In this document: positions 945-25,246 of the stretch, piece by piece
Layout: every line of letters begins with the position of its first letter
Numbering within the stretch: the first letter of the stretch is position 1
Assembly: GCF_000025505.1 (NCBI RefSeq)
Contig: NC_013849.1
Location: forward strand, 570,001 to 602,000
Direction: 5' to 3'
Length of the DNA stretch: 32,000 bases
DNA from: Ferroglobus placidus DSM 10642
GTDB taxonomy: Archaea; Halobacteriota; Archaeoglobi; Archaeoglobales; Archaeoglobaceae
The notes under the pieces: model-generated
Told to the model about the DNA's origin: nothing
The model's input: only the letters and a program-made list of their open reading frames with translations
Database searches by the model: none
Translations under genes and position numbers: made by a program

Positions 945-1188
945 CGCTCTCCGATTACGAGATACTCGTCTTAAAAAAGTTAAAAAAGGGAAAAGTGTTG
1001 GGGAGATTGCTAAGGAGCTTGGTTTGCCTGAGCCGATAGTAAGAATAGCGATAGAGAGAGTAAAAAATAAAGAGCTGCCAAAAAAAAGAATAGAATTGAC
1101 GAAAAGTGCCATATTTTTACTTATCGATGCGATAATTCTTTATGTTTTATTGAAGATATTAATAGAGGTGGCAAAATGGTTCCTTTAA
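941..1188 (+). CDS. Small LuxR/sigma-70 region-4-like HTH protein with a C-terminal TM helix, intact only if a -1 frameshift occurs at A_AAA_AAG (alternatively a pseudogene or homopolymer sequencing error)
   Basis: ATG 941 reads MTLSDYEILVLKKLKKGK and then stops at 1037-1039. The -1 frame from ~982-994 continues KSVGEIAKELGLPEPIVRIAIERVKNKELPKKRIELTKSAIFLLIDAIILYVLLKILIEVAKWFL, with a stop at 1186-1188. Joined, the two parts form one canonical HTH. The downstream frame has no ATG, GTG or TTG before 1024. In-phase slippery heptamers A_AAA_AAG lie at 973-979 and 982-988. Confidence 0.4.
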
Positions 1189-1853
1189 TAGAGGTACTCG
1201 TAGCCATCCTTGGAGTTTCGTTAGTTCTCCTCTACAACTATAAGGAGGATTTGGTGCTGGTGTTAAGGTTTTCAAGAATCAGGAGTAAGGTAAAAGATGT
1301 TATCAGAGAAAAACCATCTGTGAGAAAAAAGATTGTTATTGCGGCGATTGAACTCTCTGTTTTTGTGTTCTTAATTTATCTTGTGTTGACAATGAAAATC
1401 TTTTGGACGGTCGTCGTGTCTAACAGCATGTATCCGACTTTCGAGAGAGGAGACATGGTCCTCGTTCAAACAATATTTGTCGAGCCTGAAAAGGGAGATA
1501 TCGTTATGTTCGTTAGAGAGGATGTGAATTTGCCAGTGACTCACAGGGTCTTAGATGTTAAGGATGGGCTCGTTTATACAGGAGGTGACGCGTCCGGTCC
1601 GGATTCGACGCCGGTACCTAAAGACAAGATCATTGGTGAAGTTGTGACGATTTTCGGAAAACCTGTAGTCGTTAAGGGTGTCGGAAACTATTTTATTTTA
1701 GATGCTAAAGAACTGAGAGACATCACGCCCTTTGGCGAGGAGTATCTCTTCTATAAGAGTTTGGTTGAAGTTTTTAGAACCTATGCTCTGGCAATAATTG
1801 TTATAGCGATTGCGGCTTATCTCTACTTGAGTTTTAGAGAAATTACTTTTTAA
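1176..1853 (+). CDS. Signal peptidase I, archaeal/eukaryotic Sec11 type (S26B)
   Basis: The catalytic-Ser box VVVSNSMYPTFERGDMVLV and the His box LPVTHRV are present, flanked by TM helices. The start overlaps the preceding small gene, which suggests an operon. Confidence 0.85.
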   Translation: MVPLIEVLVAILGVSLVLLYNYKEDLVLVLRFSRIRSKVKDVIREKPSVRKKIVIAAIELSVFVFLIYLVLTMKIFWTVVVSNSMYPTFERGDMVLVQTIFVEPEKGDIVMFVREDVNLPVTHRVLDVKDGLVYTGGDASGPDSTPVPKDKIIGEVVTIFGKPVVVKGVGNYFILDAKELRDITPFGEEYLFYKSLVEVFRTYALAIIVIAIAAYLYLSFREITF

Positions 1854-2619
1854 TATTTTTTAAATTGGTTATCCCGTTTTTCAAAGATTCAGTTAGAGAG
1901 TTGTTCGCGTTTCCTCCTACAAGCTTCTTTGCCAGATTATAGTAGTAGTATGCGTAAAAGGCGGATGCTAAAAACATCACGCCCTGTGCAGCAGCAACTC
2001 CTAAGGCTATCCTAAGAAGAATGTATAGTGAGGGGGCTATTAAAACTGGTGCAGCTAACATGACTAAAGCCTCACTTTTGTGGAAAATGTTATATTCGTA
2101 AGTAATAAACAACCACCAGTATAAAAACAAAAGTATAGATATTAGATACAAGTACGGAAGGGTATACTGAGTCATGAAAACAAACGTCCCTAAATAAAAG
2201 AGCATGACTATTAACGCTTTGAAATAAAAGTTTATTTTTTGCTCTGGCGTGAGCTTTTGTGTAGTTGCGAGTTCTTCAACTATCGACACTTTCTTTTCGA
2301 CATCTTCAAGCTTCTTTTTCAGGGCATTAATTTCGATAATTCCCAGAGCGACCTCGTCCATTACAGGTTTAATTTTCGAGTAAACGACTTCATCGAAAGC
2401 TTTTTCGGCTGCAACTTTGTATCCCACGAGCTTTTTTCTAAGGTTGAGACTTCCGCCAACTATAATCGAAGACAGAATTAACAGGGTTAAATCTATTAGA
2501 ATGTTCAATGCAGGTTTCCCGGCTGAGTAATCAATGTAAAAAGAGTAAAGTGATGCTACAAAGAGCAATACGCCTACGATAACAGCGCTTAAGGTCGAGA
2601 TATTTTCGAGGGTATTCAT
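1843..2619 (-). CDS. Hypothetical polytopic membrane protein with a central coiled-coil segment
   Basis: A 258-aa ORF with several hydrophobic helices (N-terminal pair, then 4-5 C-terminal) around a charged segment, EINALKKKLEDVEKKVSIVEELATTQ. I do not recognise the family. Confidence 0.55.
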   Translation of the reverse strand: MNTLENISTLSAVIVGVLLFVASLYSFYIDYSAGKPALNILIDLTLLILSSIIVGGSLNLRKKLVGYKVAAEKAFDEVVYSKIKPVMDEVALGIIEINALKKKLEDVEKKVSIVEELATTQKLTPEQKINFYFKALIVMLFYLGTFVFMTQYTLPYLYLISILLFLYWWLFITYEYNIFHKSEALVMLAAPVLIAPSLYILLRIALGVAAAQGVMFLASAFYAYYYYNLAKKLVGGNANNSLTESLKNGITNLKNIKK

Positions 2620-2706: not shown

Positions 2707-3675
2707 TTACCTCATCACCCTCACAGCAAATATGTTGTGCCAAAGCCCGACAGCAAACAAAGCCATCTCTCTCCTGTCCTCCCTCCTCTGCCTTATCAAC
2801 CATCCAAATCTCCTCTTATCAGCAGAAAATCCTGCCTCACTTAAGTTCCTCTTGAAGTACCTCTTCAGAAACCTATAAGGAGCTTCAACAATCCTCTCGA
2901 TAACCCTCAACCAGTCAAATCCTATTCTGGCAAGATTTCGCTTTGGAATGACGTAGACAGCTGTCTCAGCATCAAACAGCCTCAGAGTCTTCCTACTGCT
3001 GTAATACTTATCCAGAGAAATCGAGTTTACCTTCACCCCCATGCTTTTGAGCATTCCTAAAGCCTTCTCAAAGGCATCTTTCTCAGATCTGTCAGAATAG
3101 CCAAAGCCAACGTACATTCCCGTATCGATGTCAATTATCCTGAAAACGTATCTGAAGTCTTTACCTTTCCTTTTAGGATTGCTTCTATAGTGCTTAGTGA
3201 TGGTTAGGCTGTATCCTGTCCCATCTCCTGAAAAATCTCCTGAAACTCCTTCCTCTCTAAGCAGAAGGATGAAGAGGTTGTGTAAAGCCATTCTAACTTC
3301 TTCATCCGAGTATAATCTTTCTATCGTTTTGTAGCTAACCTTTATCCCGAATAAAGGTTCAAACAGCTCTAAAAGCTCCTCAATATCTCTGTTTGATTTG
3401 TCCATCAGCCTTGCAAACAGAAAGAGCATAACTCTCTTCTCCAGATCAACTTTCTTTGGTCTTCCCACCCTCTTTTGCACGGTTATCACAGAAATAGCCT
3501 CTCTAACGTATTCAGGGAGTTTTCTCAGCCTTTCCTTAACAACTTCTCTCTTCCTCTCCCATTCTGTGTACGGATACTTTTCCTTCTCCTCCTGTCTTAT
3601 CTCCTCTGCAATTTCATCCAAAACATCCAGAAGTTCCCTTACAAACTTCCCTGTCACTCTGAATCCAAGGTTCAT
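2707..3675 (-). CDS. Transposase, ISA1214 family
   Basis: A 322-aa ORF fills the IS. An N-terminal HTH-like region (VGRPKKVDLEKRVMLFLFARL) is followed by a catalytic-like core (FSGDGTGYSL ... IDIDTGMYVGFGY ... SISLDKYYSS ... AGFSADKRRFG). Confidence 0.85.
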   Translation of the reverse strand: MNLGFRVTGKFVRELLDVLDEIAEEIRQEEKEKYPYTEWERKREVVKERLRKLPEYVREAISVITVQKRVGRPKKVDLEKRVMLFLFARLMDKSNRDIEELLELFEPLFGIKVSYKTIERLYSDEEVRMALHNLFILLLREEGVSGDFSGDGTGYSLTITKHYRSNPKRKGKDFRYVFRIIDIDTGMYVGFGYSDRSEKDAFEKALGMLKSMGVKVNSISLDKYYSSRKTLRLFDAETAVYVIPKRNLARIGFDWLRVIERIVEAPYRFLKRYFKRNLSEAGFSADKRRFGWLIRQRREDRREMALFAVGLWHNIFAVRVMR

Positions 3676-3726
3676 GTTCTGATTCCAACCAAAAAGTATT
3701 TAAGTATTTCTATGGATATACTTAAC

Positions 3727-3885
3727 ATGAGGAGGGTTGAAGTGAAGAAGGGAGATTTTGTTCTGAAAGAGGAGGTTGAGGTTGTTTTCGAGAAGAGAGT
3801 CACGCCTTTCGGTAATTCAGCAAAGGTTGATGTGCCCAAGAGGTATATTGGGTGGAGAGCGTATGTGATTGTTGTCAGGGATTAA
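3727..3885 (+). CDS. Small IS-encoded protein (AbrB/SpoVT-like or DUF2080-like transposon protein)
   Basis: MRRVEVKKGDFVLKEEVEVVFEKRVTPFGNSAKVDVPKRYIGWRAYVIVVRD lies inside the IS, between the transposase start and the right IR. The longer track ORF 3475..3885 is antisense to the transposase over its 5' part. ATG 3712 is an alternative start. Confidence 0.55.
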   Translation: MRRVEVKKGDFVLKEEVEVVFEKRVTPFGNSAKVDVPKRYIGWRAYVIVVRD

Positions 3886-3905: not shown

Positions 3906-3914
3906 TTGTCTTCG
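3906..3914. repeat. Target-site duplication (right copy) TTGTCTTCG
   Basis: It is identical to 2683-2691. Confidence 0.8.
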
Positions 3915-3928
3915 AAAAATTTAATATA
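3913..3928 (+). promoter_or_regulatory. Putative BRE/TATA promoter of the first cytochrome gene
   Basis: CGAAAAA (BRE-like) plus TTTAATATA (3920-3928) lies ~35 nt upstream of ATG 3961. GGGGTG at 3950-3955 sits 5 nt before the ATG. The motif starts inside the right copy of the IS target duplication. Confidence 0.45.
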
Positions 3929-3960: not shown

Positions 3961-4707
3961 ATGAGTGTGAGCGGAAGAGTATTACTCGGGATCGTAATAC
4001 TTTTAGCTGTAGGAGTTCTTGTGTTGCCATCGACTGTATCGCTTTTCGCAGGACAGCACGACTGGTACAACATCGACAATCCGGAGAACGACATTCCGTG
4101 CCAGAAGTGTCATGCGGACGTGTTTGATGAGTTAAGTAATAGCCCGTATCACATCAACTTCAGCGGTGGGACTGCTAATCAGGCAGATGAGGCTGATTGC
4201 GGAGCATGCCATCAAGCAGCAGCTGTAGTTGGAGGTGGACTCACCCTCGCAAACGGTAGCGGCGCCTTTGGCTCACCTGGTAAAGAAGCTCATGCGGCTG
4301 CAAGCATAAGCTGTATGTGGTGCCATGGATATCCCGGTAACTTTACAGCCCCTACAGCTGGAGGTTTCGGTATCTCTGGAGACCCCGCAGATACTGGTGC
4401 CTATGCAGCCCACAGACCGTGGGTTCTTTCAGCGATGGCTGACAATCCAGCTAACAACACCGATTTGCTCACAGGACCAAACGAAGCTTGCATAGGCTGT
4501 CACACCCACGTTGCTGTGAGGATTAACTGGACTCATGCTGTAAGCCTTGAATTCAACGCCACCAACACTGGCACTGGCTGGACCACGGAGAACTACAACG
4601 CTAATGGAACAGCTGTAAGGATTGTCTGGGGTAATGCGGAGGGAACTGGTGGATTGCTGTACAACGGAACAACAACAAAGAGCTGGGGAACTGGAACTTG
4701 GCCTTAA
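3961..4707 (+). CDS. Tetrahaem c-type cytochrome with an N-terminal signal or anchor segment (small-cytochrome paralogue 1)
   Basis: Four CXXCH motifs: CQKCH, CGACH, CMWCH, CIGCH. The N-terminus is MSVSGRVLLGIVILLAVGVLVLPSTVSLFAGQHDWY. Conserved extra histidines (GQH, YH, EAHAA, AAHR, HTHV..WTH) would allow bis-His ligation. The C-terminus is WGNAEGTGGLLYNGTTTKSWGTGTWP. Confidence 0.93.
   Translation: MSVSGRVLLGIVILLAVGVLVLPSTVSLFAGQHDWYNIDNPENDIPCQKCHADVFDELSNSPYHINFSGGTANQADEADCGACHQAAAVVGGGLTLANGSGAFGSPGKEAHAAASISCMWCHGYPGNFTAPTAGGFGISGDPADTGAYAAHRPWVLSAMADNPANNTDLLTGPNEACIGCHTHVAVRINWTHAVSLEFNATNTGTGWTTENYNANGTAVRIVWGNAEGTGGLLYNGTTTKSWGTGTWP
3994..4077 (+). repeat. 84-bp block identical to 4841-4924 (signal/anchor region of paralogues 1 and 2)
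   Basis: Aligned by eye at a constant offset of 847 nt, I saw no mismatch. Confidence 0.8.
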
Positions 4708-4708
4708 A
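4588..4708 (+). repeat. ~121-bp block identical to 5447-5567 (C-terminal 39 codons plus stop of paralogues 1 and 2)
   Basis: Aligned by eye at a constant offset of 859 nt, I saw no mismatch. Similarity ends immediately after the stop codon. Confidence 0.8.
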
Positions 4709-4735
4709 TCATATAGCTTGAACGTTGCTTTATAA

Positions 4736-4742
4736 TTTTTTT
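4736..4742 (+). terminator. Oligo-T tract (T7), a candidate archaeal terminator after the first cytochrome gene
   Basis: TTTTTTT lies 29 nt after the stop at 4707. It is followed by an A/T-rich TATA-like tract (~4761-4776) and GGGGTG 5 nt before ATG 4808. Confidence 0.35.
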
Positions 4743-4807
4743 AAACAGCTTAACAAAAACAAAAATTTTTAATTTTGTTTGCATAACATTACTTTGGGGT
4801 GAATAAT

Positions 4808-5566
4808 ATGATGTTAACACCGCGTGTTATCCTTTCTATTGTAATACTTTTAGCTGTAGGAGTTCTTGTGTTGCCATCGACTGTATCGCTTTTCGCAGGA
4901 CAGCACGACTGGTACAACATCGACGCGCGGGGAAACGATATTCCTTGTGAGAAATGCCATGCGGACGTTTACGATGAGCTGAAGAACAATCCGTATCATG
5001 AGAACTTTACATGCGATTTATGTCACAGAGCAATCAACATTTCCTATGCAAGCGGATATAGCAATGGACCGGATATGAGCTATGAGTGGGGTGCTCATGC
5101 GGCATCTACTGTTAGCTGTCTGGTGTGTCATAGTGGACCAAACTCTGGCGAAGGTGCTATGCATGAACATCATGAAGTAGTTGCAGACTGTTCGGTTTGT
5201 CATTCACCAAGTCCTACTGACTATCCTCCAGTGGCAGGGGGATTTGGTTTGACTGGCGAAGCTAATGACACAGGAACTTACGCAGCACACAGGCAGTTCG
5301 TTTTAGATGCTAAAAACAACTCTCTCATGACCTCTGCAAATGAAGCTTGTATAGCCTGCCACACCCATGTTCCAGTAAGAATCAATTGGAGTCATGCTGT
5401 GAGCTTAGAGCTTAACGCCACTCAGATACTCAGCGAATGGACAACCGAGAACTACAACGCTAATGGAACAGCTGTAAGGATTGTCTGGGGTAATGCGGAG
5501 GGAACTGGTGGATTGCTGTACAACGGAACAACAACAAAGAGCTGGGGAACTGGAACTTGGCCTTAA
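4808..5566 (+). CDS. Pentahaem c-type cytochrome with an N-terminal signal or anchor segment (paralogue 2)
   Basis: Five CXXCH motifs: CEKCH, CDLCH, CLVCH, CSVCH, CIACH. The track starts at GTG 4799. I prefer ATG 4808 because GGGGTG lies 5 nt upstream, the same spacing as at 3961 and 12111. The N- and C-terminal coding DNA is identical to paralogue 1. Confidence 0.9.
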   Translation: MMLTPRVILSIVILLAVGVLVLPSTVSLFAGQHDWYNIDARGNDIPCEKCHADVYDELKNNPYHENFTCDLCHRAINISYASGYSNGPDMSYEWGAHAASTVSCLVCHSGPNSGEGAMHEHHEVVADCSVCHSPSPTDYPPVAGGFGLTGEANDTGTYAAHRQFVLDAKNNSLMTSANEACIACHTHVPVRINWSHAVSLELNATQILSEWTTENYNANGTAVRIVWGNAEGTGGLLYNGTTTKSWGTGTWP

Positions 5567-5657: not shown

Positions 5658-8600
5658 ATGAACGTGGGAAGAATTTTACTGTTGCTAACATTCGTAGCAG
5701 TTCTTGCAGCGGTTTCAGCAGCACAAGAGTACGATGGAAGCGTGGCTAAAGTTGTTATACTGAAAAACGGAGTTCCGGAGCTCTACTTTTCGAAAGGAGA
5801 CAAGGTCGAGTTCAGAGTTTACAGCTACGTGGGAGATCAGAAAGATCTCAAGCTGAAACTGTACAACTACAAGGGCGATAGATTCAAAGAAATGAGATTC
5901 TCAAAGAAAGGTGACTACTACGTCGCTTACTGGACAGCAGACAGGGAGGGATGGATTTACTACGTGATAACTTCGAGGGACAAAATCAGGAACATCTGGG
6001 GCTACATTGTTGTTGGGAACAATGATATCGGAAGCATAAAGCTTTACAAAGACGGAGTGGAGAGCGAAAGCTTCGTTCAGGGAGATTACGTTTACGTCAA
6101 AATAAAGACCACCGACAAAGACAAAGTTCGTAGAGTTCTCATAAGCAACTGGGCGGGAGATGTAAGGAGTCTGGATGGAGATGAGGTAGAGATTATTTCT
6201 TCGACCGAAAACGAGCTTTACTTCAGATTCTACCTTGGCAACTATCTAACCGAGCACCTCTATCCTGACAAGTGGGCTTCACTCAGAGTCGAAACGGACA
6301 GAGGAATAAAAGCTTCCACACCGTTCTTCTTCGGAGAAGCCGCTCCAACTCCCACTCCGACACCTACCCCTACACCGACACCCACTCCTACTCCAACGCC
6401 TACTCCCACACCGACTCCTACTCCAACGGCACAGGGAGAAGTTTTGAAACTCTCTTTCGACAGGCTTGCTGTTCTTGACGATCCGAATTCTGGCAGTGCA
6501 GCTTCGGGATTTCAGAACCCGCCTAAAAGCTGGGGCTCGGACTGGTGGTACGGGAGAGCGACAACAATTACAGCATACGCACTTGTAATGAACGGAACTC
6601 CAGTAGCAAATGCACAGGTGACGTTTAAGCTGATAGCACCTGACGGAAGCGTGAAAAAGCAGGTAACTGCATATACCGACTCAAGCGGATTGGCAAAAGC
6701 GAGTTTCGATCTAAACAATGCGAATTTCTACGGCTACTGGAAAATCGTAGCTGAAAGCGGAGCTTTAAGTGCAGAGCAAACCTTCGTTTACAACTGGTGG
6801 GGATGTGCGTGGTGTCATGGAAACGAGAAGCTGACAGACCACGGCACCTACACGCCGAAATCACCATTCGTAATGGGCTACGACTTTCACAGGAATCCGA
6901 AGAAGGGTGAGCATGTTGATCCTATAGTGGACGGCAGGTGCACGGTATGCCACCAGAGCTACGATGCAATTCCCCACGACAGCTACGCTATGCAAGGCAA
7001 AGATGCAATTAAGAACGCTCCTCCTGCCGATCAGTATCCGGCTGGTATTCACAAGGATAAGGTTCAGTGCGAAGACTGCCATGAGCAATCAACTGTTAGA
7101 TATGCCCGTCCGGAAGTTCCAGGCTGTTACGACACGTGCCATCCACTAAAGAATTTCAACCTCACGGCAATTTTCACAACCACCGGCTACTCGGTTGGAG
7201 GCTCTTACAGATCCTTCTACGCCTACGATGTTAACACGGGAGAACCTGCTAAGGCTCACACATCTCAGAAAACCGTGCCCTGCTTGAGCTGCCACAACGC
7301 AGCTCATAACAACACCAAACCTTACGTCGGAGCAGACAACAGCTACACCGAAAACGAGCAGTGCCTGAGCTGTCACGGCTACAAGCACGGAACAAGTGTA
7401 ACGAACTGTGTCGGCTGCCACGGACAGGATGCTCACCTCGTCAAAGCACCGAAGGCAGGAAACTGTATAGAGTGCCACAAAGTTGGAGGCTTCGCACCTA
7501 ACGTTGACGTTGAGGCTTTCAACATCAGCGTTCACGCAAACCTGAATGCCAATGCAGCATCTTCATCAGGCTATCCTTCGGTGGTCGGAGCATGCTGGGC
7601 GTGTCATTATAACGGAACCGAACCTCAGTCGCACGACACGGCAGCGTTTAGAAATCCGAAGAAGTGCGAAGATTGCCACCTCTCAGGAAATTACGGAGCT
7701 CCAGTTGTAGAGGAACACATCAGGTTCGGAAGGGACATAACTGTCAACACATACTGCACGGACTGTCACAGCCTTGGTGAGATGCTGAACGCCTTTAAAG
7801 ATCCAGAAGTAACCAAGAACTCTACGGTCTCCCACTATGCCAGAAAGAGGATAGATTTGAGGACGTGGGATTCGGGAATTTCAGATAACTGTTCTTACTG
7901 TCATCAGAACACGACAACAGTATTCAGTATTGTAATGAGTGATGTCTGGAGCAAAAACGTTCCGCCTCACGCGACAAACTATCCGTCTCCATCGTGCACG
8001 AACTCCACATGTCACAACTCTGGACTGATACACAGCTCAAGCTTGACGAAACCGACACTCACTGACACATACTGTCAGAACTGTCACAGCAAGCAGTTCC
8101 ACAATAATGCCATTGACTGCAGCACCTGCCACCTCGAAAATGGAATGCCGAAAAACATCCACGGAATCAAGTACCTGACTTCTTCCGGAACATTTACATC
8201 GAATCCATCGGATGCTGTGGATTGCACCTCCTGCCATCAACCCGGAAGCTCGACATCTGGAATTCTGAACGCTCCTGTCATTCCAGATCCGCTAAAGCAC
8301 TCCTCAGACAGCAGCGGTCAGAAGTGGGGCAGTTACTGGATGACAGAACTTGAATCCTGCTACTACTGTCACGGTGATACGAAACACGAAGCAAAGGCTC
8401 TTGGAAACGTTTCAAACCTGACTCTCGATCCAGCGAATGTGATGAACTCGTCAAGCCTTACGACAAGGTGGTGTTACGGCTGCCATGTTGCGGGCTATCA
8501 GTATTACATGGGAACGTCATTGAACCCGCAACCTCCTGCAATCGACGTTAACAATCTCGGAAGCGCCAACTGGCTGAACCATTCAAGCTTCGTATCGGCT

Positions 8601-10856
8601 GACAGCACGGATCAAATCTGCATCGCCTGTCACAGCCTTAACGGTAGTTACGCATTAACAACTGCTAACTACGCTCACAGCCTCGATCCGGGAACTTCTG
8701 GCGGACCTGACTGTGTTGCCTGCCACGACATCGGTGGCTTCGCACCTAACGTTGATGTCATGGCTATGAAATCCGGAACTCATGCTAATCTGAACAGCGG
8801 TGCGTACAATGCAACCAAGCTGACAGACGAAATTGACAAAGCTTGCTGGGCATGCCATGGGGATGGAAGCGAGCCCGAGAAGCATCCGACCAGTTACAAG
8901 AATCCAAAGCAGTGCGAAGACTGTCATCTCAGCGGAGCATTCAATGCTCCAGTTGTAGCTAACCACTTCTCCAACGGAGCGAGCATAAAGGTGAATTCAA
9001 CATGCGTTGATTGCCACAGCAAGAACGAAATGCTTACCGCATACAGCGACTCTTCTGTAACAGTCATGTCAGCAGTTAGCCACTACGGCAAGAAGAGAGC
9101 AGACTTACTAACGCCTTCTCAGTACGACACTTACGACGTTAAATGCTCCTACTGCCACCAGAACACAACGACAGCATTCGCAGATGTCATGAAGAGCAGC
9201 TTCAGCTATAACGTGCCGGATCACTCAGATTCTCCGAACTCGCCGAGCTGTGTAGGATTGTGCCACGGATACGGAAGAATGCACGATGAAACGCTCAGCA
9301 AGAAGTCTCTGACAACTTCCAGGATGTGTCTCGACTGCCATTCTGCGGGAGGAAAGTTCAAGCACAACGGAACTGTTGACTGCTTCGTCTGCCACATGGA
9401 TCCCTCAGATTCGATAGGCAAGGCTCAAATACACGGAATTAAGTATCTCCAGAAAGACGGAAGCTTTGTAATGTATCAGCCAGCAAATGCGGTTGATTGC
9501 TACACATGCCATGCAACCGCCAACGTATCGCAAGTGCTGACATCTTATGGCTTAACAGCTCCTCAGATTACATGGTTGGGACACTCAACCGGGCAGAAGT
9601 GGGGAGTGTACTGGACAACAGATAACCAAGCCTGCGAATACTGTCATGGTGATACCAAGCACAACACAACTGCGCTTGGTAGAATCTCTCTCATAGCAGA
9701 CACATCAACGCTCGACAGCTTGGTATGCGCAGCTTGTCATGCAACAGACTCAGCCAACTACGCCGGAGATAAATGGTCTCCAACACCGCCAAGCATTGTC
9801 GGAACGGCTATAAATGAAGAATGGGTCAGCCACGACTTCCTCGGAGGAGATTACAGAGCCTCGAACTGTGCTGCATGCCACAATCCGGATGCTGCAGACG
9901 TTACCCAGCTTGCACACGACGTTAAAGCTGCAGCTGGAGGCTGTATTCAGTGTCATGCCAACCAGAGCGTTGCTTATGTTAACGTGAATGCAATGGGAAG
10001 ACACGCCAACGTTGACGGAGATGCAAATCTTACTGACAAAGACTGCACAACCTGCCATTTCGACATAAGCGGCAAATTCTCCGCTAACTACAAACCGATT
10101 GCCGGAGTTAACGTTTACAGCTGCGAAGACTGCCACGTTAACGGTAATCCGGTTAGCGTTCCGGCAGATGTGCAGATTTCGTCCTTCCAGCACGGTCTAA
10201 ACGACTGCAAGTCATGCCACATCGTCAGTTACGGATATCACTACGCTTCTCCGCTCGGTGATGTAGCAGCACTTCCAAGCTTCAGCTCGGATTATAGAAC
10301 GAATGAAGCAACGAGGGTTAACCTGTGCAACGACTGCCACCACAGAATGAACGCTGACGATGAGCCGTTCCACGCTCCCGGAATAACTCCAGCAATGGCG
10401 GGTTACTCCTCATGCGGCAGTGGAGGGTGGTGTCATGGTGGAAGCAGAGAAACGACGGATCCGCACTACGTTAAGCAGATATATCAATCGCCGTGGTTCT
10501 CATACTCGCTGAACATGCCCGATAACGTGTCCGGAAAGTTCAATGCATCTCTAAAGATATGGACAAACAACATACAGATGCACTACGGATATTACGAGGT
10601 GATTGACAGCTTCGGCAATGTAATCCTTAGAGCGAATCTCACTCCAGATGATGGAGAATGGGGACAGAGTTACGCAAACTGGGGAAGAGACAGCATTGAA
10701 AGCTTCACGATTTCAATCGATCCGTCTGGCTGGATGCCCGGCAACTACACCGTAAAGTTCTACGTGATGAGGGACGCTCCGAAAGTCGATCCGTCGAAGC
10801 CGTACTACATGAACGGCTACATACTGACTGTGAGCAAGCAGTTTGCAGTTCAGTAA
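5658..10856 (+). CDS. Giant secreted multihaem c-type cytochrome: 33 CXXCH plus 4 spacing variants, up to 37 haems
   Basis: The signal peptide is MNVGRILLLLTFVAVLAAVSA/AQE. Next come two Ig-like beta domains, a (PT)14 linker, and a Big/MG-like domain. The haem region starts at WWGCAWCH. I counted 33 CXXCH motifs plus CYDTCH, CTNSTCH, CVGLCH and CGSGGWCH. A C-terminal Ig-like domain follows. There are no Cys residues outside haem motifs. There is no TM or C-terminal anchor. Confidence 0.95.
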   Translation: MNVGRILLLLTFVAVLAAVSAAQEYDGSVAKVVILKNGVPELYFSKGDKVEFRVYSYVGDQKDLKLKLYNYKGDRFKEMRFSKKGDYYVAYWTADREGWIYYVITSRDKIRNIWGYIVVGNNDIGSIKLYKDGVESESFVQGDYVYVKIKTTDKDKVRRVLISNWAGDVRSLDGDEVEIISSTENELYFRFYLGNYLTEHLYPDKWASLRVETDRGIKASTPFFFGEAAPTPTPTPTPTPTPTPTPTPTPTPTPTPTAQGEVLKLSFDRLAVLDDPNSGSAASGFQNPPKSWGSDWWYGRATTITAYALVMNGTPVANAQVTFKLIAPDGSVKKQVTAYTDSSGLAKASFDLNNANFYGYWKIVAESGALSAEQTFVYNWWGCAWCHGNEKLTDHGTYTPKSPFVMGYDFHRNPKKGEHVDPIVDGRCTVCHQSYDAIPHDSYAMQGKDAIKNAPPADQYPAGIHKDKVQCEDCHEQSTVRYARPEVPGCYDTCHPLKNFNLTAIFTTTGYSVGGSYRSFYAYDVNTGEPAKAHTSQKTVPCLSCHNAAHNNTKPYVGADNSYTENEQCLSCHGYKHGTSVTNCVGCHGQDAHLVKAPKAGNCIECHKVGGFAPNVDVEAFNISVHANLNANAASSSGYPSVVGACWACHYNGTEPQSHDTAAFRNPKKCEDCHLSGNYGAPVVEEHIRFGRDITVNTYCTDCHSLGEMLNAFKDPEVTKNSTVSHYARKRIDLRTWDSGISDNCSYCHQNTTTVFSIVMSDVWSKNVPPHATNYPSPSCTNSTCHNSGLIHSSSLTKPTLTDTYCQNCHSKQFHNNAIDCSTCHLENGMPKNIHGIKYLTSSGTFTSNPSDAVDCTSCHQPGSSTSGILNAPVIPDPLKHSSDSSGQKWGSYWMTELESCYYCHGDTKHEAKALGNVSNLTLDPANVMNSSSLTTRWCYGCHVAGYQYYMGTSLNPQPPAIDVNNLGSANWLNHSSFVSADSTDQICIACHSLNGSYALTTANYAHSLDPGTSGGPDCVACHDIGGFAPNVDVMAMKSGTHANLNSGAYNATKLTDEIDKACWACHGDGSEPEKHPTSYKNPKQCEDCHLSGAFNAPVVANHFSNGASIKVNSTCVDCHSKNEMLTAYSDSSVTVMSAVSHYGKKRADLLTPSQYDTYDVKCSYCHQNTTTAFADVMKSSFSYNVPDHSDSPNSPSCVGLCHGYGRMHDETLSKKSLTTSRMCLDCHSAGGKFKHNGTVDCFVCHMDPSDSIGKAQIHGIKYLQKDGSFVMYQPANAVDCYTCHATANVSQVLTSYGLTAPQITWLGHSTGQKWGVYWTTDNQACEYCHGDTKHNTTALGRISLIADTSTLDSLVCAACHATDSANYAGDKWSPTPPSIVGTAINEEWVSHDFLGGDYRASNCAACHNPDAADVTQLAHDVKAAAGGCIQCHANQSVAYVNVNAMGRHANVDGDANLTDKDCTTCHFDISGKFSANYKPIAGVNVYSCEDCHVNGNPVSVPADVQISSFQHGLNDCKSCHIVSYGYHYASPLGDVAALPSFSSDYRTNEATRVNLCNDCHHRMNADDEPFHAPGITPAMAGYSSCGSGGWCHGGSRETTDPHYVKQIYQSPWFSYSLNMPDNVSGKFNASLKIWTNNIQMHYGYYEVIDSFGNVILRANLTPDDGEWGQSYANWGRDSIESFTISIDPSGWMPGNYTVKFYVMRDAPKVDPSKPYYMNGYILTVSKQFAVQ
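6345..6428 (+). repeat. (Pro-Thr)14 linker coding repeat
   Basis: It encodes PTPTPT...PT using mixed synonymous codons (CCA/CCG/CCT/CCC, ACT/ACA/ACC/ACG), so it is not a pure microsatellite. Confidence 0.9.
6774..7376 (+). repeat. ~603-bp block near-identical to 12543-13145 in giant cytochrome 2
   Basis: The offset is constant at 5769 nt with no indels. By eye I saw roughly 15 mismatches, almost all synonymous and clustered between ~6948 and ~7135. The last ~230 bp has one mismatch, giving F to L. The block covers haem motifs 1-5 plus CYDTCH. Confidence 0.85.
7458..8705 (+). repeat. Haem module copy A (~416 aa, 10 CXXCH plus 1 CX4CH)
   Basis: It runs from GNCIECHKVGGFAPNVDVEAF to QICIACHSLNG. 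It aligns position by position with copy B: CWACH, NPKxCEDCHLSG, CxDCH, SHYxxKRxDL, CSYCHQNTTT, IHGIKYL, GQKWGxYW, CxYCHGDTKH. Confidence 0.85.
8706..9941 (+). repeat. Haem module copy B (tandem duplicate of 7458-8705, diverged)
   Basis: It runs from PDCVACHDIGGFAPNVDVMAM to SNCAACHNPD. The first Cys codons of the two copies (7464 and 8712) are exactly 1248 nt apart. A third, truncated and degenerate start (GGCIQCHANQSVAYVNVNAMGRHAN) begins at ~9942. Confidence 0.85.
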
Positions 10857-12098: not shown

Positions 12099-12110
12099 GG
12101 GGTGAATCCA

Positions 12111-15100
12111 ATGAAAACCCGCTTTTTAACTGAGGTAGCTTTATCAATTTTGCTTCTACTTGTAATCATCCCGATCACTGAGGCTCAGGAATTTAATGTA
12201 AAACTCTCTCTCGACAGGCTTGTTGTTCTTGACGATCCGAATTCTGGCAGTGCCGCTTCGGGATTTCAGAACCCGCCTAAAAGCTGGGACTCGGACTGGT
12301 GGTACGGAAGGGCAACGACGATAAAGGCGTACGCTGTAGTTCTTGGAGAAGAAGGTGCTTTGTCGGGTGTTCAGGTAACTTTTAGACTTATAAACCCGAA
12401 CGGTAATGTCGAATACACCACCACAGCAACGACCAACGCTGCGGGAATTGCGGAATTCGAATACGATATGAACAACAAGAATTACTACGGCTACTGGAAG
12501 GTTGAGGCTGAGGTAACCCTCGACGGAGTTACAAAGAGGGCGGAGCAAACCTTCGTTTACAACTGGTGGGGATGTGCGTGGTGTCATGGAAACGAGAAGC
12601 TGACAGACCACGGCACCTACACGCCGAAATCACCATTCGTAATGGGCTACGACTTTCACAGGAATCCGAAGAAGGGTGAGCATGTTGATCCTATAGTGGA
12701 CGGCAGGTGCACGGTGTGCCACCAGAGCTACGATGCAATTCCGCACGACAGCTACGCTATGCAAGGAAAAGATGCAATTAAGAACGCTCCTCCTGCCGAT
12801 CAGTATCCGGCTGGTATTCACAAAGATAAGGTTCAGTGCGAAGATTGTCATGAGCAATCGACGGTCAGATATGCTCGCCCTGAAGTTCCAGGCTGTTATG
12901 ACACGTGCCATCCACTAAAGAATTTCAACCTCACGGCAATTCTCACAACCACCGGCTACTCGGTTGGAGGCTCTTACAGATCCTTCTACGCCTACGATGT
13001 TAACACGGGAGAACCTGCTAAGGCTCACACATCTCAGAAAACCGTGCCCTGCTTGAGCTGCCACAACGCAGCTCATAACAACACCAAACCTTACGTCGGA
13101 GCAGACAACAGCTACACCGAAAACGAGCAGTGCCTGAGCTGCCACCTCAACGGTCAGCACTCCACAACAAATCCTGTTGATTGTGTTGACTGCCACAGTC
13201 AGGATGCCCATTCAATAAAGGTTGTGAAGAAGGGAGGAGGCTACGATTCTCCCTCTTCGAGCAATTCAGTACTTAAAAAGGATTGCGAGGAGTGTCACGT
13301 TTCAACAACCGGGAGCTTTTTCGAATCAAAAGGATACTCACCGAGGACTGACAGCTTTGGCAATAGCATAGCGAAGCACGCCGGAAAAGTTGATTGCAAA
13401 GACTGTCATGGAGATGAGAGCAGATTCCACAGAATAGCTTATCTGAGTTCTGACGGTAGTTTTGCTGACAAGCAGAGTGCATCGTACTGCTTCGACTGTC
13501 ACACGAATTCCGGAGCAAATTCTTACATAGAATCTAGAGGATACTATCCGCTAGCTATAACTTCCTTCCAGCATGGAAACGCGAGCTACGATGGTAAAAA
13601 CTGGGGCACTTACTGGAGTTCAGACAGAGAAGCATGTTACTACTGCCATCAGAGGTCTCCGCATGGAGATGTTAAAGGCAACGTTTCTGGACTGGATGTT
13701 AAAGCGGATTTATCTGGAAAAGCCTGTGCCGCATGTCACGTTAAAAGCTATTCGGGCTATATCGGAGACAGGTTGAACCCCGAACCTCCTGCAATTGACG
13801 TGAACAACACCGGCAGAGCTAAAAATTCAGCTGGAGAGGAATGGTATAACCATACGAGGTATCTTGAAGACTACAACGATGCAACGTGTTTTGGCTGTCA
13901 CGCACCTTCTCCGGACTTTCCGAGGGACTTCTACGCATTCGTCCACAACGTGGAAGAGGGATTAAGACCGGGGGCTGATTGCGCTTCTTGCCACGATCTG
14001 AACGAAAGACCGCCGAAAAGAGTGGATGTTTCAGCTTTTTCAAATTCGGTGCACGCCAATCTCAACAGCAACGCCTTAAACAGCACACCGGTAAATCCGC
14101 TGAGTAAAGCATGCTGGCTGTGTCATGGCGATGGGACTGAGCCGTCGGATCATCCCGACAACTATAAGAATCCGAAGAAGTGCGAAGATTGCCACCTCTC
14201 AGGAAATTACGGAGCTCCAGTTGTGGAGGAGCATATAAAGAGTGGAAAGCATGTTAAGGTTTCGGCGGAATGCTGGGACTGTCACGGCATTTCCGAGATG
14301 GTTGTTTTAAACTCGGACGAAGAAGGATCGAGTAAGGCTTTCGCAAGTCATTACGCGAAGCTGAGACAGGACTTATGGGTAAGAGGGTATTCGGGGGATG
14401 TCGGTCTGGATTGCTATTACTGTCACCAGAACGCAACATCGGCATTTAAAGCAGTAATGAAGAACGAGAATCACACCTACATGCCGGATCACGGTCTGAA
14501 TGACAGATCTTGTTGGGCTTGTCACGGGTTGGAGATGCATGTAAGATTGGACAAGCCTTCGGTTTCAAACACTTACTGCAAATCCTGTCATTCAGGCTAC
14601 GAGCTGCACAACGGAACTGTCAGCTGTTACGTCTGTCACATGGACGGAAGCGATACCACATACGACTCACCAAAAGCCCAGATTCACGGAATAAAGTACC
14701 CGTCTGCAAACGGCTACACTTCAGTAAAAAGCAAGGGGTGCTACGGATGCCATACGGGCAAGCTGAGCAAATCCACAAATGCCTGGGGAGTTTCTGTTCC
14801 AACAATTCCCGAATTCAGCCACAGCAACTATCCAAATAACGGAACGAGGTGGGGAGATTACTGGAATAGCGTTGATGATGCTTGCATATACTGTCACACC
14901 CCTGCCGTTCACAGCTCGAATTTGAAAGGAAACGTTTCGATTGTTAAAGGTTCGAACAGCTACAGAGCAGATTTAGCAAACTCATACTGGTGTTCCGCGT
15001 GCCACTACTCCTCGTACTCAGGATACAAAGGAGATTCCCTCAATCCTACGCCTCCTGACATCGCATCCTATTCAACCCCCTCAGACGGCATAAAGTGGTT

Positions 15101-17030
15101 CGATCACTCTTCCTATATCTCCTCAGATTATTCCGATGCGAAGTGCCTTGAGTGCCATGGAGAGAATGTCGTGAGAAGCAATGAGTTCGTCCATGCCGTT
15201 AAAGAAGGAGTGGGAGGAGCTTGCATGGATTGCCATACCGATCCTTATTATTCCTCGGTTGCTGTGAACGTTTCATCCTTTGGGAGGCATGCGAAGGTTG
15301 ATGGAAGAGAAGGCTTAGATGTCGATGACTGCAGGATCTGCCACTATTCTCCGTGGGAAATGCTCAGGAGTGGGTGGACTATCGTAAGCGTGACTTGCGA
15401 GGATTGTCATAAAGGAAACGTTCCAGAAGATGTCAAGATAACAGCTTTCCAGCACGGGAGCAACAGCTGTATTGATTGTCATGCGGGGGGCGGTTACGAG
15501 AAAGGTAAGCTTTACCACTATGACTTCTCCACGCCCTATGGATCTGTGAAGGATCCAGGGTGGAGCGAATGGAGCAAGAGCGTCGTTGACTGCTACGACT
15601 GCCATGTCAGCCATGCAAAGAGCGAGCCGTTCTACGCGATTGGAATAAGCAGCTACATGGCAACGAGCTTTTCATCCTGTGGCGGAGTTAACTGTCACGG
15701 AGGTGGAACTGTTCACAATGTCGTTAAAAGTCCGTACATGTATCCTCCGTTTGTCAGAGTCTCGATTGAGAGAAACATGGTACTCGAAGGAGAAACCGTT
15801 AGCGTTTCAGCCGATATATGGGGATACGACGTCCAGATTAACGATTCTTGGTATGAAGTGCTGGATGCAAAAGGCAACGTCCTTCTTTCCGGTAAAGCCT
15901 TACCGTCTGATGGCAGTTTCGGAGGACTCAAAAACGGATATGGATACGAGAGGGTTGAATTCAGCTTCAACGCAAACTTCGAACCCGGAGTTTACGAGGT
16001 AAGAGTGTATGCTGAGAAGGATACCGGTATGACTTCTTATGGCGAAGCCGAGCTCATTGTTGGGGCTGCTGGCAGCTCTGCTGCGAACTTCTACTTCGAA
16101 TCATGGAATCTCGACGGAACGCTGACGAACTGGGCTTTCGGAGGTAGCGGAACGCTTGAGAAGAGCAGCATTTCAAAGTCCGGATACTCTGCCAAGATCA
16201 CAGCAACCAGCGAGGCTTGGATCGAGAGCATAAAATTCCCTGTTGAAAGCAATAAAGAATACCTCGTAATCGTGTTCGCCAACTTCAGCAATAAGGTCGG
16301 TCTGACAGTGAAGAAGTGGAGCAATAATGCTCTACTGGAAACGACCCCAGAGGTCGTGGCTGAAGGAAATCCGGGAAGGTGGATAGCTTTTGGAACGGTG
16401 GTGAATTCCGGAAACGCCGACAATCTTTCAATACTGCTTAAGGTTTACAGCGGATACGCTTACTTCGACAACGTGTCTGTCGTAGCAGTTCCTCTGCTTG
16501 AGAACAGGGCAGTAAACGGGGAATTTGAAGAGGATGAAGATGCTTATGCGAGCTACGAAAAATCTGACGAGAACGTAAAAGCCTGGGAGCCGAAGAAGGT
16601 TAGCGGTTTCGTTTTGCCGGCAAAATATCCGGGGAGAGGTAGAGTTCTGGCTGTGCTTGGAACGGGATACTGGACTTCAGCGTATCAGGACGAAAGCTTC
16701 AGCACAGCTGCGAGAAGCTACGCAAGGGATTACGGGATAAGGATGTCTGGCGAATTCATCATCCTCGCGGACATCTACAAGTCATCCGAAGGTTTCGGAG
16801 GAGTTGAGCTGACATTCTGGGACTGGAGTTTCGATCAGGCGAAGAATAACCTTGTAGAGGATGGCTCTTACAAAGTTGGATTCTACGACAGTACCGACTG
16901 GAGAACTGTGGTAATCATAGACGACATGAATAATGCGAATTTGCTCCAAATAAAACTCAAGGGAGAGAACGTTAAAGAGCTAATGTTCGATAGAGTCAGA
17001 TGCTACTTGAACGAGGGAGTGGTAAACTAA
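12111..17030 (+). CDS. Giant secreted multihaem c-type cytochrome (29 CXXCH plus 2 variants) with a C-terminal Ig-like domain and two CBM4_9-like jelly-roll domains
   Basis: The track starts at GTG 12102. ATG 12111 is preferred (MKTRFLTEVALSILLLLVIIPITEA/QE). I counted 29 CXXCH plus CYDTCH and CGGVNCH. After the last haem motif (~15690) comes an Ig-like domain. Two domains then follow, starting N.xFE..W-like and ending YFDNVSVV and MFDRVRCY. There is no TM anchor. Confidence 0.95.
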   Translation: MKTRFLTEVALSILLLLVIIPITEAQEFNVKLSLDRLVVLDDPNSGSAASGFQNPPKSWDSDWWYGRATTIKAYAVVLGEEGALSGVQVTFRLINPNGNVEYTTTATTNAAGIAEFEYDMNNKNYYGYWKVEAEVTLDGVTKRAEQTFVYNWWGCAWCHGNEKLTDHGTYTPKSPFVMGYDFHRNPKKGEHVDPIVDGRCTVCHQSYDAIPHDSYAMQGKDAIKNAPPADQYPAGIHKDKVQCEDCHEQSTVRYARPEVPGCYDTCHPLKNFNLTAILTTTGYSVGGSYRSFYAYDVNTGEPAKAHTSQKTVPCLSCHNAAHNNTKPYVGADNSYTENEQCLSCHLNGQHSTTNPVDCVDCHSQDAHSIKVVKKGGGYDSPSSSNSVLKKDCEECHVSTTGSFFESKGYSPRTDSFGNSIAKHAGKVDCKDCHGDESRFHRIAYLSSDGSFADKQSASYCFDCHTNSGANSYIESRGYYPLAITSFQHGNASYDGKNWGTYWSSDREACYYCHQRSPHGDVKGNVSGLDVKADLSGKACAACHVKSYSGYIGDRLNPEPPAIDVNNTGRAKNSAGEEWYNHTRYLEDYNDATCFGCHAPSPDFPRDFYAFVHNVEEGLRPGADCASCHDLNERPPKRVDVSAFSNSVHANLNSNALNSTPVNPLSKACWLCHGDGTEPSDHPDNYKNPKKCEDCHLSGNYGAPVVEEHIKSGKHVKVSAECWDCHGISEMVVLNSDEEGSSKAFASHYAKLRQDLWVRGYSGDVGLDCYYCHQNATSAFKAVMKNENHTYMPDHGLNDRSCWACHGLEMHVRLDKPSVSNTYCKSCHSGYELHNGTVSCYVCHMDGSDTTYDSPKAQIHGIKYPSANGYTSVKSKGCYGCHTGKLSKSTNAWGVSVPTIPEFSHSNYPNNGTRWGDYWNSVDDACIYCHTPAVHSSNLKGNVSIVKGSNSYRADLANSYWCSACHYSSYSGYKGDSLNPTPPDIASYSTPSDGIKWFDHSSYISSDYSDAKCLECHGENVVRSNEFVHAVKEGVGGACMDCHTDPYYSSVAVNVSSFGRHAKVDGREGLDVDDCRICHYSPWEMLRSGWTIVSVTCEDCHKGNVPEDVKITAFQHGSNSCIDCHAGGGYEKGKLYHYDFSTPYGSVKDPGWSEWSKSVVDCYDCHVSHAKSEPFYAIGISSYMATSFSSCGGVNCHGGGTVHNVVKSPYMYPPFVRVSIERNMVLEGETVSVSADIWGYDVQINDSWYEVLDAKGNVLLSGKALPSDGSFGGLKNGYGYERVEFSFNANFEPGVYEVRVYAEKDTGMTSYGEAELIVGAAGSSAANFYFESWNLDGTLTNWAFGGSGTLEKSSISKSGYSAKITATSEAWIESIKFPVESNKEYLVIVFANFSNKVGLTVKKWSNNALLETTPEVVAEGNPGRWIAFGTVVNSGNADNLSILLKVYSGYAYFDNVSVVAVPLLENRAVNGEFEEDEDAYASYEKSDENVKAWEPKKVSGFVLPAKYPGRGRVLAVLGTGYWTSAYQDESFSTAARSYARDYGIRMSGEFIILADIYKSSEGFGGVELTFWDWSFDQAKNNLVEDGSYKVGFYDSTDWRTVVIIDDMNNANLLQIKLKGENVKELMFDRVRCYLNEGVVN
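12543..13145 (+). repeat. Partner of the 6774-7376 near-identical block
   Basis: See the 6774-7376 feature. A second, shorter similar patch is 12201-12335 versus 6447-6580 (LDDPNSGSAASGFQNPPKSW). A ~60-bp patch at 14167-14235 matches 7651-7720 (NPKKCEDCHLSGNYGAPVVEEH). Confidence 0.85.
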
Positions 17031-17058: not shown

Positions 17059-17787
17059 ATGATGAAGAGAACTCTTACTTTAATCCTTGTAATTTTTTCG
17101 TTTTCGATTTACATACTTCCGTCTACCGTCTCATTATTCCCCGGAGAGCATTTATGGTACGATCTTGAGCAATCCGGAACGGGAGTTCCGTGCGTTAAAT
17201 GTCATGCCGACATTTACGATGAACTCAATAATTCTGCCTATCACAAAATATGGGGAGATCCGAACAAAGCTGACAGCCAAGATTGCTACACGTGCCACAC
17301 GATAAACCAAAGTATAACCTATGCCGATGCTGATATTGGTGTTACAGGCAAAGAGGCTCACGCAGCTTCGACTATAAACTGCGGATACTGCCACTTCAAC
17401 TCGTCGATAGCCTCTGCAATGGGTACAATTGTGGCTGGAGGTTTTGGAAAGAGCGATTTGACTGGAGACACAGGAGAGGTTGAAGCTCACAGAGAGTTTC
17501 TGGAGAGCGCTATGCTTGACGATCCGGTCTACGGATCTAATTTATTGGAGAAGGAAAACGAGGCTTGTATAGCTTGCCATTCTGCTGTTCCAGTAAAAAT
17601 TCACTTCGCTCACAGGGAAAAGCTGAGCTTCAGGGCTGAGAAGAACAGCAAGGGATTGTGGAACCATCCGAGCTTTGGGTCTTCTGGCTACGTTAATACG
17701 ACCGTCTGGGGCAATGCGATGGGAAGCGGAGGTTTTTACAACAATTCAACCACCAAAAAGGCTTGGGGTGATGCCACATGGCCTTGA
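17059..17787 (+). CDS. Tetrahaem c-type cytochrome with an N-terminal signal or anchor segment (paralogue 3)
   Basis: CVKCH, CYTCH, CGYCH, CIACH. The N-terminus is MMKRTLTLILVIFSFSIYILPSTVSLFPGEHLWY. The C-terminus TVWGNAMGSGGFYNNSTTKKAWGDATWP is shared with paralogues 1 and 2. It lies only 28 nt after giant 2, so it is probably co-transcribed. Confidence 0.92.
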   Translation: MMKRTLTLILVIFSFSIYILPSTVSLFPGEHLWYDLEQSGTGVPCVKCHADIYDELNNSAYHKIWGDPNKADSQDCYTCHTINQSITYADADIGVTGKEAHAASTINCGYCHFNSSIASAMGTIVAGGFGKSDLTGDTGEVEAHREFLESAMLDDPVYGSNLLEKENEACIACHSAVPVKIHFAHREKLSFRAEKNSKGLWNHPSFGSSGYVNTTVWGNAMGSGGFYNNSTTKKAWGDATWP

Positions 17788-25206: not shown

Positions 25207-25246
25207 TGGAAAAAACTTAAAGTCCATTTCAACATTTCGAAGTTCC

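Follow-up and report, generated by a model that had tools for sequence, protein, structure and literature searches.

We analyzed a 32,000-nucleotide (nt) window of the Ferroglobus placidus DSM 10642 genome (NC_013849.1, positions 570,001 to 602,000); "the window" denotes this whole stretch, and coordinates are counted from its first letter. Five small multiheme cytochrome genes in the window, starting at 3961, 4808, 17059, 17778 and 18401, encode homologs of AvECN, the subunit of an Archaeoglobus veneficus filament that was reportedly solved by Baquero et al. in 2023. We conclude that the five products are probably secreted AvECN-family c-type cytochromes acting through the nanowire mechanism proposed below. 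Among hyperthermophilic Fe(III) reducers, F. placidus serves as a model; it requires direct contact with the mineral, and attention has so far centered on the giant cytochromes. AvECN-type wires, if formed by Ferp_0668 and its paralogs, would represent the missing long-range element of this Fe(III) pathway.

The AvECN family and its filament are already known, and the Ferroglobus set is an uncharacterized member of that family. What is new here is the subtype structure of the family, together with its quantified linkage to a signal peptidase, a membrane protein and a pair of 4-heme and 9-heme genes. The advance is incremental, because the peptidase linkage was partly noted by Chadwick et al. 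2022 and the spread of the family has already been published.

The five genes are as follows.

3961..4707, + strand: Ferp_0668 (100% identity), 248 aa, 4 CxxCH; AvECN-type tetraheme cytochrome
4808..5566, + strand: Ferp_0669, 252 aa from its ATG, 5 CxxCH; five-heme variant of the AvECN family
17059..17787, + strand: 17059 gene, 242 aa, 4 CxxCH; WGN..TWP tail; immediately follows the second giant cytochrome gene
17778..18404, + strand: 17778 gene, 208 aa, 4 CxxCH; short, without the tail; 10-nt overlap with the preceding gene
18401..19555, + strand: 18401 gene, 384 aa, 6 CxxCH plus one CX3CH (CQLSCH) and one CVDCK; extended member

Five paralogs and their match to the A. veneficus filament subunit

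Sequence searches linked the five proteins to a single solved structure. The products of 3961, 17059, 17778 and 18401 were searched singly against the sequences of solved structures (listing threshold E <= 10), as was a profile of all five, and in each case the only significant match was chain A of 8E5G (8e5g_A), the AvECN filament. Using phmmer, Ferp_0668 matched this chain with an E value of 2.8e-48 over residues 5-238, which is near full length. The 17059 product matched it with an E value of 3.6e-33 in an alignment reaching the last residue of the chain, the 17778 product with 5.5e-20, and the 18401 product with 2.9e-15 in its N-terminal half only (residues 8-191); for the five-member profile the E value was 8.3e-53. 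The 4808 product was compared by BLASTP with a reconstructed 8E5G chain A sequence and gave an E value of 1e-53. Ferp_0668 is the nearest of the five to AvECN, with 45% BLASTP identity over the full length.

The structural comparison pointed in the same direction. When the AlphaFold2 (AF2) model of Ferp_0668 was compared with the PDB by Foldseek, 8e5g was the sole hit at E <= 0.001 (E 2.7e-10, probability 1.00), and the model places strands at residues 186-243, forming a beta-rich C-terminal domain. No chain of PcECN (8E5F), OmcS, OmcE or OmcZ was present among the PDB sequence matches at E <= 10. A preliminary description of this DNA had pointed to two archaeal cytochrome filaments and proposed an alignment with their published subunits; that of A. 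veneficus (8E5G) proved homologous to the family, with E values down to 2.8e-48, while that of Pyrobaculum calidifontis (8E5F) showed no similarity.

The five open reading frames (ORFs) are paralogs of one another, with pairwise BLASTP E values of 1e-13 to 2e-101 and 26 invariant columns in their alignment. They have the common layout that was initially recognized: each protein contains a single hydrophobic segment, located at the N-terminus, which is followed by LPSTVS-LF.G.H.WY, KTTS-LFVGQH or TPSVS-VLYGSH, with the first heme motif about 10 residues farther on. The proposed consensus of this heme motif, C.KCHAD(I/V)(Y/F)DE(L/M), is present in four of the five, but the fifth reads CVSCHPQAADEL. 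Likewise, the description of all five as tetraheme proteins holds for 3961, 17059 and 17778 but not for 4808, with its 5 CxxCH, or for 18401, which is a 7-8-heme protein. The tail WGNA.G.GG....TTK.WG..TWP-stop ends the products of 3961, 4808 and 17059; 17778 has none, and 18401 has extra heme sites in its place. In Ferp_0669, the additional CSVCH is an insert between hemes 3 and 4, and both the N-terminus and the tail match those of Ferp_0668. N-glycosylation sequons number 4-16 per protein among the five, with 8 in Ferp_0668.

The extended 18401 protein combines two parts. Its N-terminal half is AvECN-like, with four hemes and four distal His, and its C-terminal half carries the additional heme sites CENCH, CQLSCH, CYDCH and CVDCK, with an NrfB-like Pfam match at residues 230-313 (27.3 bits). 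Two of these sites deviate from the usual form. CQLSCH (CX3CH) is aligned with CxxCH of the homologs, and CVDCK, near the C-terminus in NTCVDCKEV, stands where nine 8-10-heme homologs show C(M/V/L)(G/D)CH. The latter is either a Lys-type heme site like the active-site heme of NrfA or a decayed site.

Conserved heme ligands and a predicted N-terminal cleavage site

According to PMC12203936, 8E5G is a cryo-EM filament of A. veneficus in which three of the four hemes of AvECN are ligated distally by a His of another subunit. The polymer is held together by this exchange. We examined the conservation of the corresponding residues in 55 homologs. Eight His were invariant or at least 98% conserved, namely the four in the CxxCH motifs and His33, His64, His111 and His151 (Ferp_0668 numbering), of which His33 lies within LFAGQH and His111 within AHAA. 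The four CxxCH motifs and the same four additional His are also invariant across the five paralogs, and each of these four is aligned to a His in AvECN. Eight is the number of His for four bis-His hemes, which argues that His33 is part of the mature protein. The suggestion that the His of LF.G.H could ligate a heme agrees with this pattern, as that residue is invariant in 55/55 relatives and is one of exactly four conserved His outside CxxCH, as expected of a ligand. In the AF2 monomer of Ferp_0668, confidence is lowest at residues 25-37, which would fit an arm that becomes ordered only in the assembly.

The predicted signal peptide of Ferp_0668 comprises residues 1-27. Cleavage-site statistics were obtained from 138 family members in 78 related loci (designated by L numbers below), which a scan of genome contigs had identified in Archaeoglobaceae, anaerobic methanotrophic archaea of group 1 (ANME-1), Syntrophoarchaeum and Methanosarcinales. 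The median length of the predicted signal was 26 residues. For the proposed cleavage before L28 (PSTVS-LF), position -1 was S, A, T or G in all 138 relatives, position -3 was T, S or A in 132/138, and position -5 was Pro in 127/138. The T/S-x-S position had been thought to fit a signal-peptidase-I site, and the -1/-3 rule is indeed obeyed across the family. Signal peptides of 25-28 residues were predicted independently for the Methanoperedens homologs of Ferp_0668, which are the most highly expressed cytochromes of that organism (PMC4683180). The structure-library copy of 8e5g contains 220 residues against 262 deposited, which is compatible with, but not proof of, the loss of a signal peptide. 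Cleavage of Ferp_0668 at this site would yield an N-terminus at Leu28 and, as a predicted product, the semi-tryptic peptide LFAGQHDWYNIDNPENDIPCQK.

Other forms of processing and anchoring were also considered. A class III (pilin-like) signal peptide was rejected because the five N-termini show no conserved [KR]G motif ahead of their hydrophobic segment, and a PGF-CTERM or other C-terminal anchor was rejected because none of the five proteins has a hydrophobic segment at that end. Cleavage after A16-x-G18 is less likely because a hydrophobic core of only ~9 residues would remain.

Family subtypes and conserved gene neighborhoods

The family can be divided into four subtypes. Subfamilies were defined by best-hit assignment together with the alignments; a hierarchical clustering of 159 family ORFs, cut at one level, had left them unseparated. 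Subtype 1 consists of AvECN-like 4-heme proteins with the tail, represented here by 3961. Subtype 2, represented by 4808, is a widespread 5-6-heme variant with the inserted heme between hemes 3 and 4; 76 related ORFs from other loci best match 4808, most of them with 5-6 CxxCH and often in tandem after a 4-heme copy. Subtype 3 contains 4-heme proteins encoded before the extended gene, and the two members in the window share 40% identity, the tail being kept in 17059 and lost in 17778. Subtype 4 is the extended form, 18401. Tandem paralogs are usual in the family, with more than one copy in 51/79 loci.

The genes 17778 and 18401 form a conserved pair, with orthologous pairs in L002, L032, L037, L043, L049 and L057. 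The two genes overlap each other, the ATG of 18401 overlapping the upstream stop codon (ATGA), as well as the gene before them, and they are therefore probably co-translated. The two fall into different subfamilies, and their products may not serve as filament subunits. A 17059-type gene follows a giant cytochrome gene also in L001. A further 4-heme subfamily of ~305 aa, whose N-terminus is without the LF.GQH arm, was observed as the second gene after an AvECN-like gene in Archaeoglobaceae metagenome-assembled genomes (L006, L009, L013, L019, L028 and L030) and has no counterpart in the window.

A profile search of 1.84 billion representatives gave 467 clusters at 50% identity, of which 296 had E <= 1e-10. 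The distribution of the family and its high transcription were described by Chadwick et al. 2022 (PMC9012536), and in later studies the homologs from Methanocellales and Methanoperedenaceae are called MmcX or "homologues of AvECN". Our literature search found no paper linking Ferroglobus to AvECN.

The other features of the cluster that bear on the interpretation are as follows.

1176..1853, + strand: archaeal (endoplasmic reticulum, ER-type) signal peptidase I; NCBIfam TIGR02228 (sigpep_I_arch), 66.6 bits against a cut-off of 51.85
1843..2619, - strand: Ferp_0665, conserved membrane protein with ~6 helices and a long helical loop; convergent to the peptidase gene
2707..3885, no strand assigned: insertion sequence (IS)-like insertion; 322-aa transposase-like ORF (- strand) and 52-aa ORF at 3727-3885 (+ strand)
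3913..3928, + strand: archaeal promoter-like element read from the sequence; CGAAAAA plus TATA-like TTTAATATA box (3920-3928), 33-48 nt upstream of the 3961 ATG
4736..4742, + strand: T7 run, likewise read from the sequence, 29 nt past the 3961 stop codon; resembles an archaeal oligo-T terminator
5658..10856, + strand: giant multiheme cytochrome Ferp_0670, 33 CxxCH
12102..17030, + strand: giant multiheme cytochrome, probably Ferp_0672, 29 CxxCH
19612..25206, + strand: third giant multiheme cytochrome, 23 CxxCH

The signal peptidase at 1176-1853 also matches Pfam S24/S26 and contains SNSM and VTHRV motifs in its sequence, and it is likely the enzyme that removes the signal peptides of the cytochromes. 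Ferp_0665 has no Pfam match and an AF2 model of low confidence (predicted local distance difference test, pLDDT, 60.7); it may act in assembly or maturation. Peptidase homologs adjoin family cytochromes in L002, L032, L037, L043, L049, L052 and L081. In L032, L037, L043 and L049, the homolog lies immediately before a pair consisting of a short 4-heme gene and an extended 8-10-heme gene, and in L002 and L052 it lies near such a pair. Peptidase co-occurrence was found in 6/10 loci with a 9-heme gene versus 1/69 without one (Fisher p = 5e-6). Homologs of Ferp_0665 adjoin the peptidase or the 9-heme gene in L032, L043, L052, L079 and L081, and in the first three of these the Ferp_0665-like gene is downstream of the peptidase-linked 4-heme and 9-heme pair.

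A protein search with the peptidase gave 48 clusters, a count from a word-indexed search that misses relatives below ~35% identity, and the named ones were from Geoglobus or Archaeoglobi. Two genes beside cytochrome clusters, for a membrane protein and a signal peptidase, were described by Chadwick et al. 2022 as restricted to ANME, Ferroglobus and Geoglobus and were taken as maturation factors (PMC9012536). The membrane protein in that study has eight helices and therefore may not be Ferp_0665.

We then compared the gene order with that of Geoglobus acetivorans. The contig scan returned no F. placidus, Geoglobus isolate or A. veneficus, and the Geoglobus synteny was recovered via the peptidase. 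The G. acetivorans locus (L081) encodes, in order, a CARDB-like surface protein, an 87-aa protein, the signal peptidase, the membrane protein (opposite strand), the Ferp_0668 ortholog, a 5-heme paralog, a giant cytochrome, a BNR-like protein (opposite strand) and another giant cytochrome. The locus has no IS-like element, and the Ferp_0668 ortholog is found 116 nt after the membrane gene. In the window, the IS-like element, whose 322-aa transposase-like ORF has no Pfam hit, separates the pair of peptidase and Ferp_0665 from Ferp_0668. Because the element is absent from the syntenic locus, it is a recent insertion, and the Geoglobus order indicates that the peptidase and membrane genes were ancestrally direct neighbors of the family genes. 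The insertion may account for the "own" promoter context of Ferp_0668. The preliminary description had placed 3961 first in the cluster, which is true only because the IS element stands between 3961 and the conserved cluster's upstream genes. In the window, the counterpart of the 87-aa gene found before the peptidase in Geoglobus (MTASDYEILV...) falls into two overlapping frames within 941-1188 (941-1039 and 1024-1188), reflecting either a frameshift, a pseudogene or an error in sequencing.

Ferp_0670 is likely a cell-surface electron conduit. Together with Ferp_0672, it has been implicated in Fe(III) reduction, according to a secondary citation in PMC13104607. The giant genes at 5658-10856 and 12102-17030 share a 609-nt stretch at 97% identity and shorter ones at 96-98%, the remainder having diverged. 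Similarly, 3961 and 4808 have 86-87% DNA identity over the 5' 160 nt and the 3' 230 nt, with a diverged middle. The shared stretches in both pairs look like gene conversion between paralogs.

Several surface-protein genes were also observed around the giant cytochrome genes. A BNR-like (beta-propeller) gene of 374 aa lies between two of the giant genes (10879-12003, - strand); its homologs stand beside giant cytochromes in G. acetivorans and L001 and near the peptidase and membrane pair without giants in L079/L080. The ends of the cluster carry three more genes, at 3-944, 25148-25678 and 25651-26811, encoding a CARDB-like protein with a C-terminal anchor, a lipoprotein-like protein of 165 aa, and a protein that combines a PKD domain with a long Pro-Thr linker and an anchor at its C-terminus. 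Homologs of the trio occur in L002 (4853-9180, Archaeoglobus sp. JdFR-37), contiguous with the signal peptidase and downstream of the family cytochromes, and the three proteins may belong to the same surface system. Long (Thr-Pro)n linkers are present in the 5658-10856 giant (residues ~240-265) and in the PKD protein at 25651-26811, and they look like extended, probably O-glycosylated spacers typical of archaeal surface proteins.

Proposed mechanism, alternatives and known systems

From the homology, ligand conservation, cleavage-site pattern and synteny observed here, we infer cleavage, polymerization, a bulk subunit and a physiological role in F. placidus as follows. Each precursor would be exported by Sec and tethered by its N-terminal hydrophobic segment during heme attachment. 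A type I signal peptidase, likely that of the cluster at 1176-1853, would then cut after (T/S)-x-S (T-V-S27 in Ferp_0668). This cleavage would free the arm L-F-x-G-Q-H, whose His, together with the three other conserved His, would serve as the distal ligands of the four hemes. In head-to-tail assembly, His33 and two other distal His would ligate the hemes of a neighbor, as in AvECN, creating a continuous heme chain. On the basis of homology, the major subunit of such a glycosylated conductive filament is probably Ferp_0668, and the tail-bearing 4808 and 17059 products are probably filament subunits too. Electrons would pass along the filament between the giant cytochromes of the surface and insoluble Fe(III). 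The 17778 and 18401 proteins would form a distinct peptidase-linked module, whose role is more likely that of an adaptor, a base or a membrane-to-surface carrier than that of bulk filament. Secreted filament-type subunits had been one of two initial readings of these genes, and the AvECN match, the conserved His and the T-x-S site support it.

The cluster might even encode a dedicated nanowire assembly pathway, although we put this forward only tentatively. In such a pathway, a specialized signal peptidase I (1176-1853), Ferp_0665 and a base or adaptor made of 17778 and 18401 would cooperate, and signal-peptide cleavage would trigger polymerization because it frees the N-terminal His arm to ligate the heme of the next subunit. 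The 4-heme and 5-heme paralogs could then build mixed or alternative filaments. The recurrent linkage thus offers testable candidates for the unsolved nanowire assembly step in archaea, namely the restricted signal peptidase I, the membrane protein and the short 4-heme and 9-heme gene pair.

Several points weigh against the nanowire interpretation. With five paralogs falling into at least three subtypes, not every one can be the bulk subunit. Our literature search found no experimental evidence of filaments, cleavage or location in F. placidus. The AF2 model of Ferp_0668 is mediocre (pLDDT 69.6), and its template modeling score (TM-score) to 8e5g is 0.43-0.48, a modest value attributable to a heme-free model of moderate quality for a protein with little secondary structure. 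In addition, conservation of the hydrophobic core goes well beyond what is usual in signal peptides (A16 50/55, G18 52/55, L22, P23 54/55). This conservation could indicate a retained anchor or a second role before cleavage, or it may reflect recognition by a dedicated enzyme.

The main rival explanation is that some or all of the proteins are secreted electron carriers, monomeric or in small oligomers. Instead of polymerizing into long filaments, they would shuttle electrons across the gap that separates the cytoplasmic membrane from the surface layer (S-layer), or they would decorate the giant cytochromes. Chadwick et al. proposed such a role for the widespread, highly transcribed small multiheme family of ANME and Archaeoglobales (PMC9012536), and the family genes are interleaved with giant cytochrome genes in the window, in Geoglobus and in L001. 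However, giant cytochromes accompany family genes in only 5/79 loci, and the solved close homolog, aligned over its full length, is a filament. Moreover, AvECN subunits exchange three of the four distal His, all of them invariant or nearly so in the family, and a monomer would have to satisfy the four internally. We regard this explanation as unlikely for the set; it is most plausible for 17778 and 18401, which are without the family tail and constitute a conserved pair of their own.

Another possibility is a heteropolymeric filament in which the paralogs are alternative or mixed subunits used according to conditions, with the 5-heme variant, for example, giving a branched or exposed heme. Tandem pairs of 4-heme and 5/6-heme genes occur in a dozen or more loci. 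The N-terminal arms and C-terminal tails of 3961 and 4808 are nearly identical and their middles diverged, a pattern that would be expected if contact surfaces needed to stay compatible. However, reviewed cytochrome filaments are described as homopolymers (PMC11936953), and we consider mixed filaments rather improbable.

It is very improbable that the five are membrane-anchored quinol dehydrogenases like NapC, NirT, NrfH or CymA with an uncleaved N-terminal helix, the other initial reading, because Pfam, NCBIfam, PDB and neighborhood tests were all negative. The resemblance is that of a small protein with a lone N-terminal hydrophobic helix, here conserved to an unusual degree, and then four c-type hemes within ~200 residues. 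Pfam returned only generic multiheme domains for the five, and PF03264 (Cytochrom_NNT) gave 17.4, none, 13.7, 12.1 and 23.3 bits against a cut-off of 24.1, these weak matches spanning just the final third of the model. The NCBIfam NrfH equivalog TIGR03153 gave 18.5-33.2 bits against a cut-off of 134.2, and no NrfH, NapC or CymA chain was among the PDB matches at E <= 10, whether a single sequence or a profile was used. No partner reductase gene of the nap, nrf, nir, tor or dms type is located within the window, where the neighbors are giant multiheme cytochromes, the signal peptidase, surface proteins (CARDB-like, PKD and BNR-like) and housekeeping genes. The Ferroglobus family further differs in being ~100 residues longer, including the beta-rich C-terminal domain, in having a c-region that follows the -3/-1 cleavage rule family-wide, and in its homology to an extracellular filament.

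Among filament-forming cytochromes, PcECN of P. calidifontis and the Geobacter proteins OmcS, OmcE and OmcZ are also tetra- to octaheme subunits that polymerize into heme wires, and their heme stacking geometry is reported as similar (PMC12203936), whereas their sequence similarity to the Ferroglobus family is undetectable at E <= 10. AvECN itself (UniProt F2KMU8, PDB 8E5G; called MmcX in a Methanocellales study) is homologous to Ferp_0668 over the full length. The two proteins have four CxxCH in identical order, the same four distal His, the N-terminal LPST(T/V)SLF.GQH.WYNI segment, and a beta-rich C-terminal domain with a (W/F)GN..G.G...WP tail, and their source organisms are both Archaeoglobaceae. 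In contrast to AvECN, the F. placidus cluster contains five paralogs of at least three subtypes (4-heme, 5-heme, short tail-less and extended 7-8-heme), interleaved with three giant 23-33-heme cytochromes, and its filament is a predicted one, whereas that of A. veneficus has been observed.

In the TasA/SipW system of Bacillus subtilis and the OmcZ/OzpA system of Geobacter, a dedicated peptidase processes the fiber subunit before assembly. The F. placidus cluster resembles these systems in having an ER/archaeal-type signal peptidase gene beside fiber-subunit genes, and processing would likewise expose a segment that engages the next subunit. The folds are unrelated, however, and in Ferroglobus, where processing is a prediction from genes, the exchange element would be a heme-ligating His arm rather than a donor strand.

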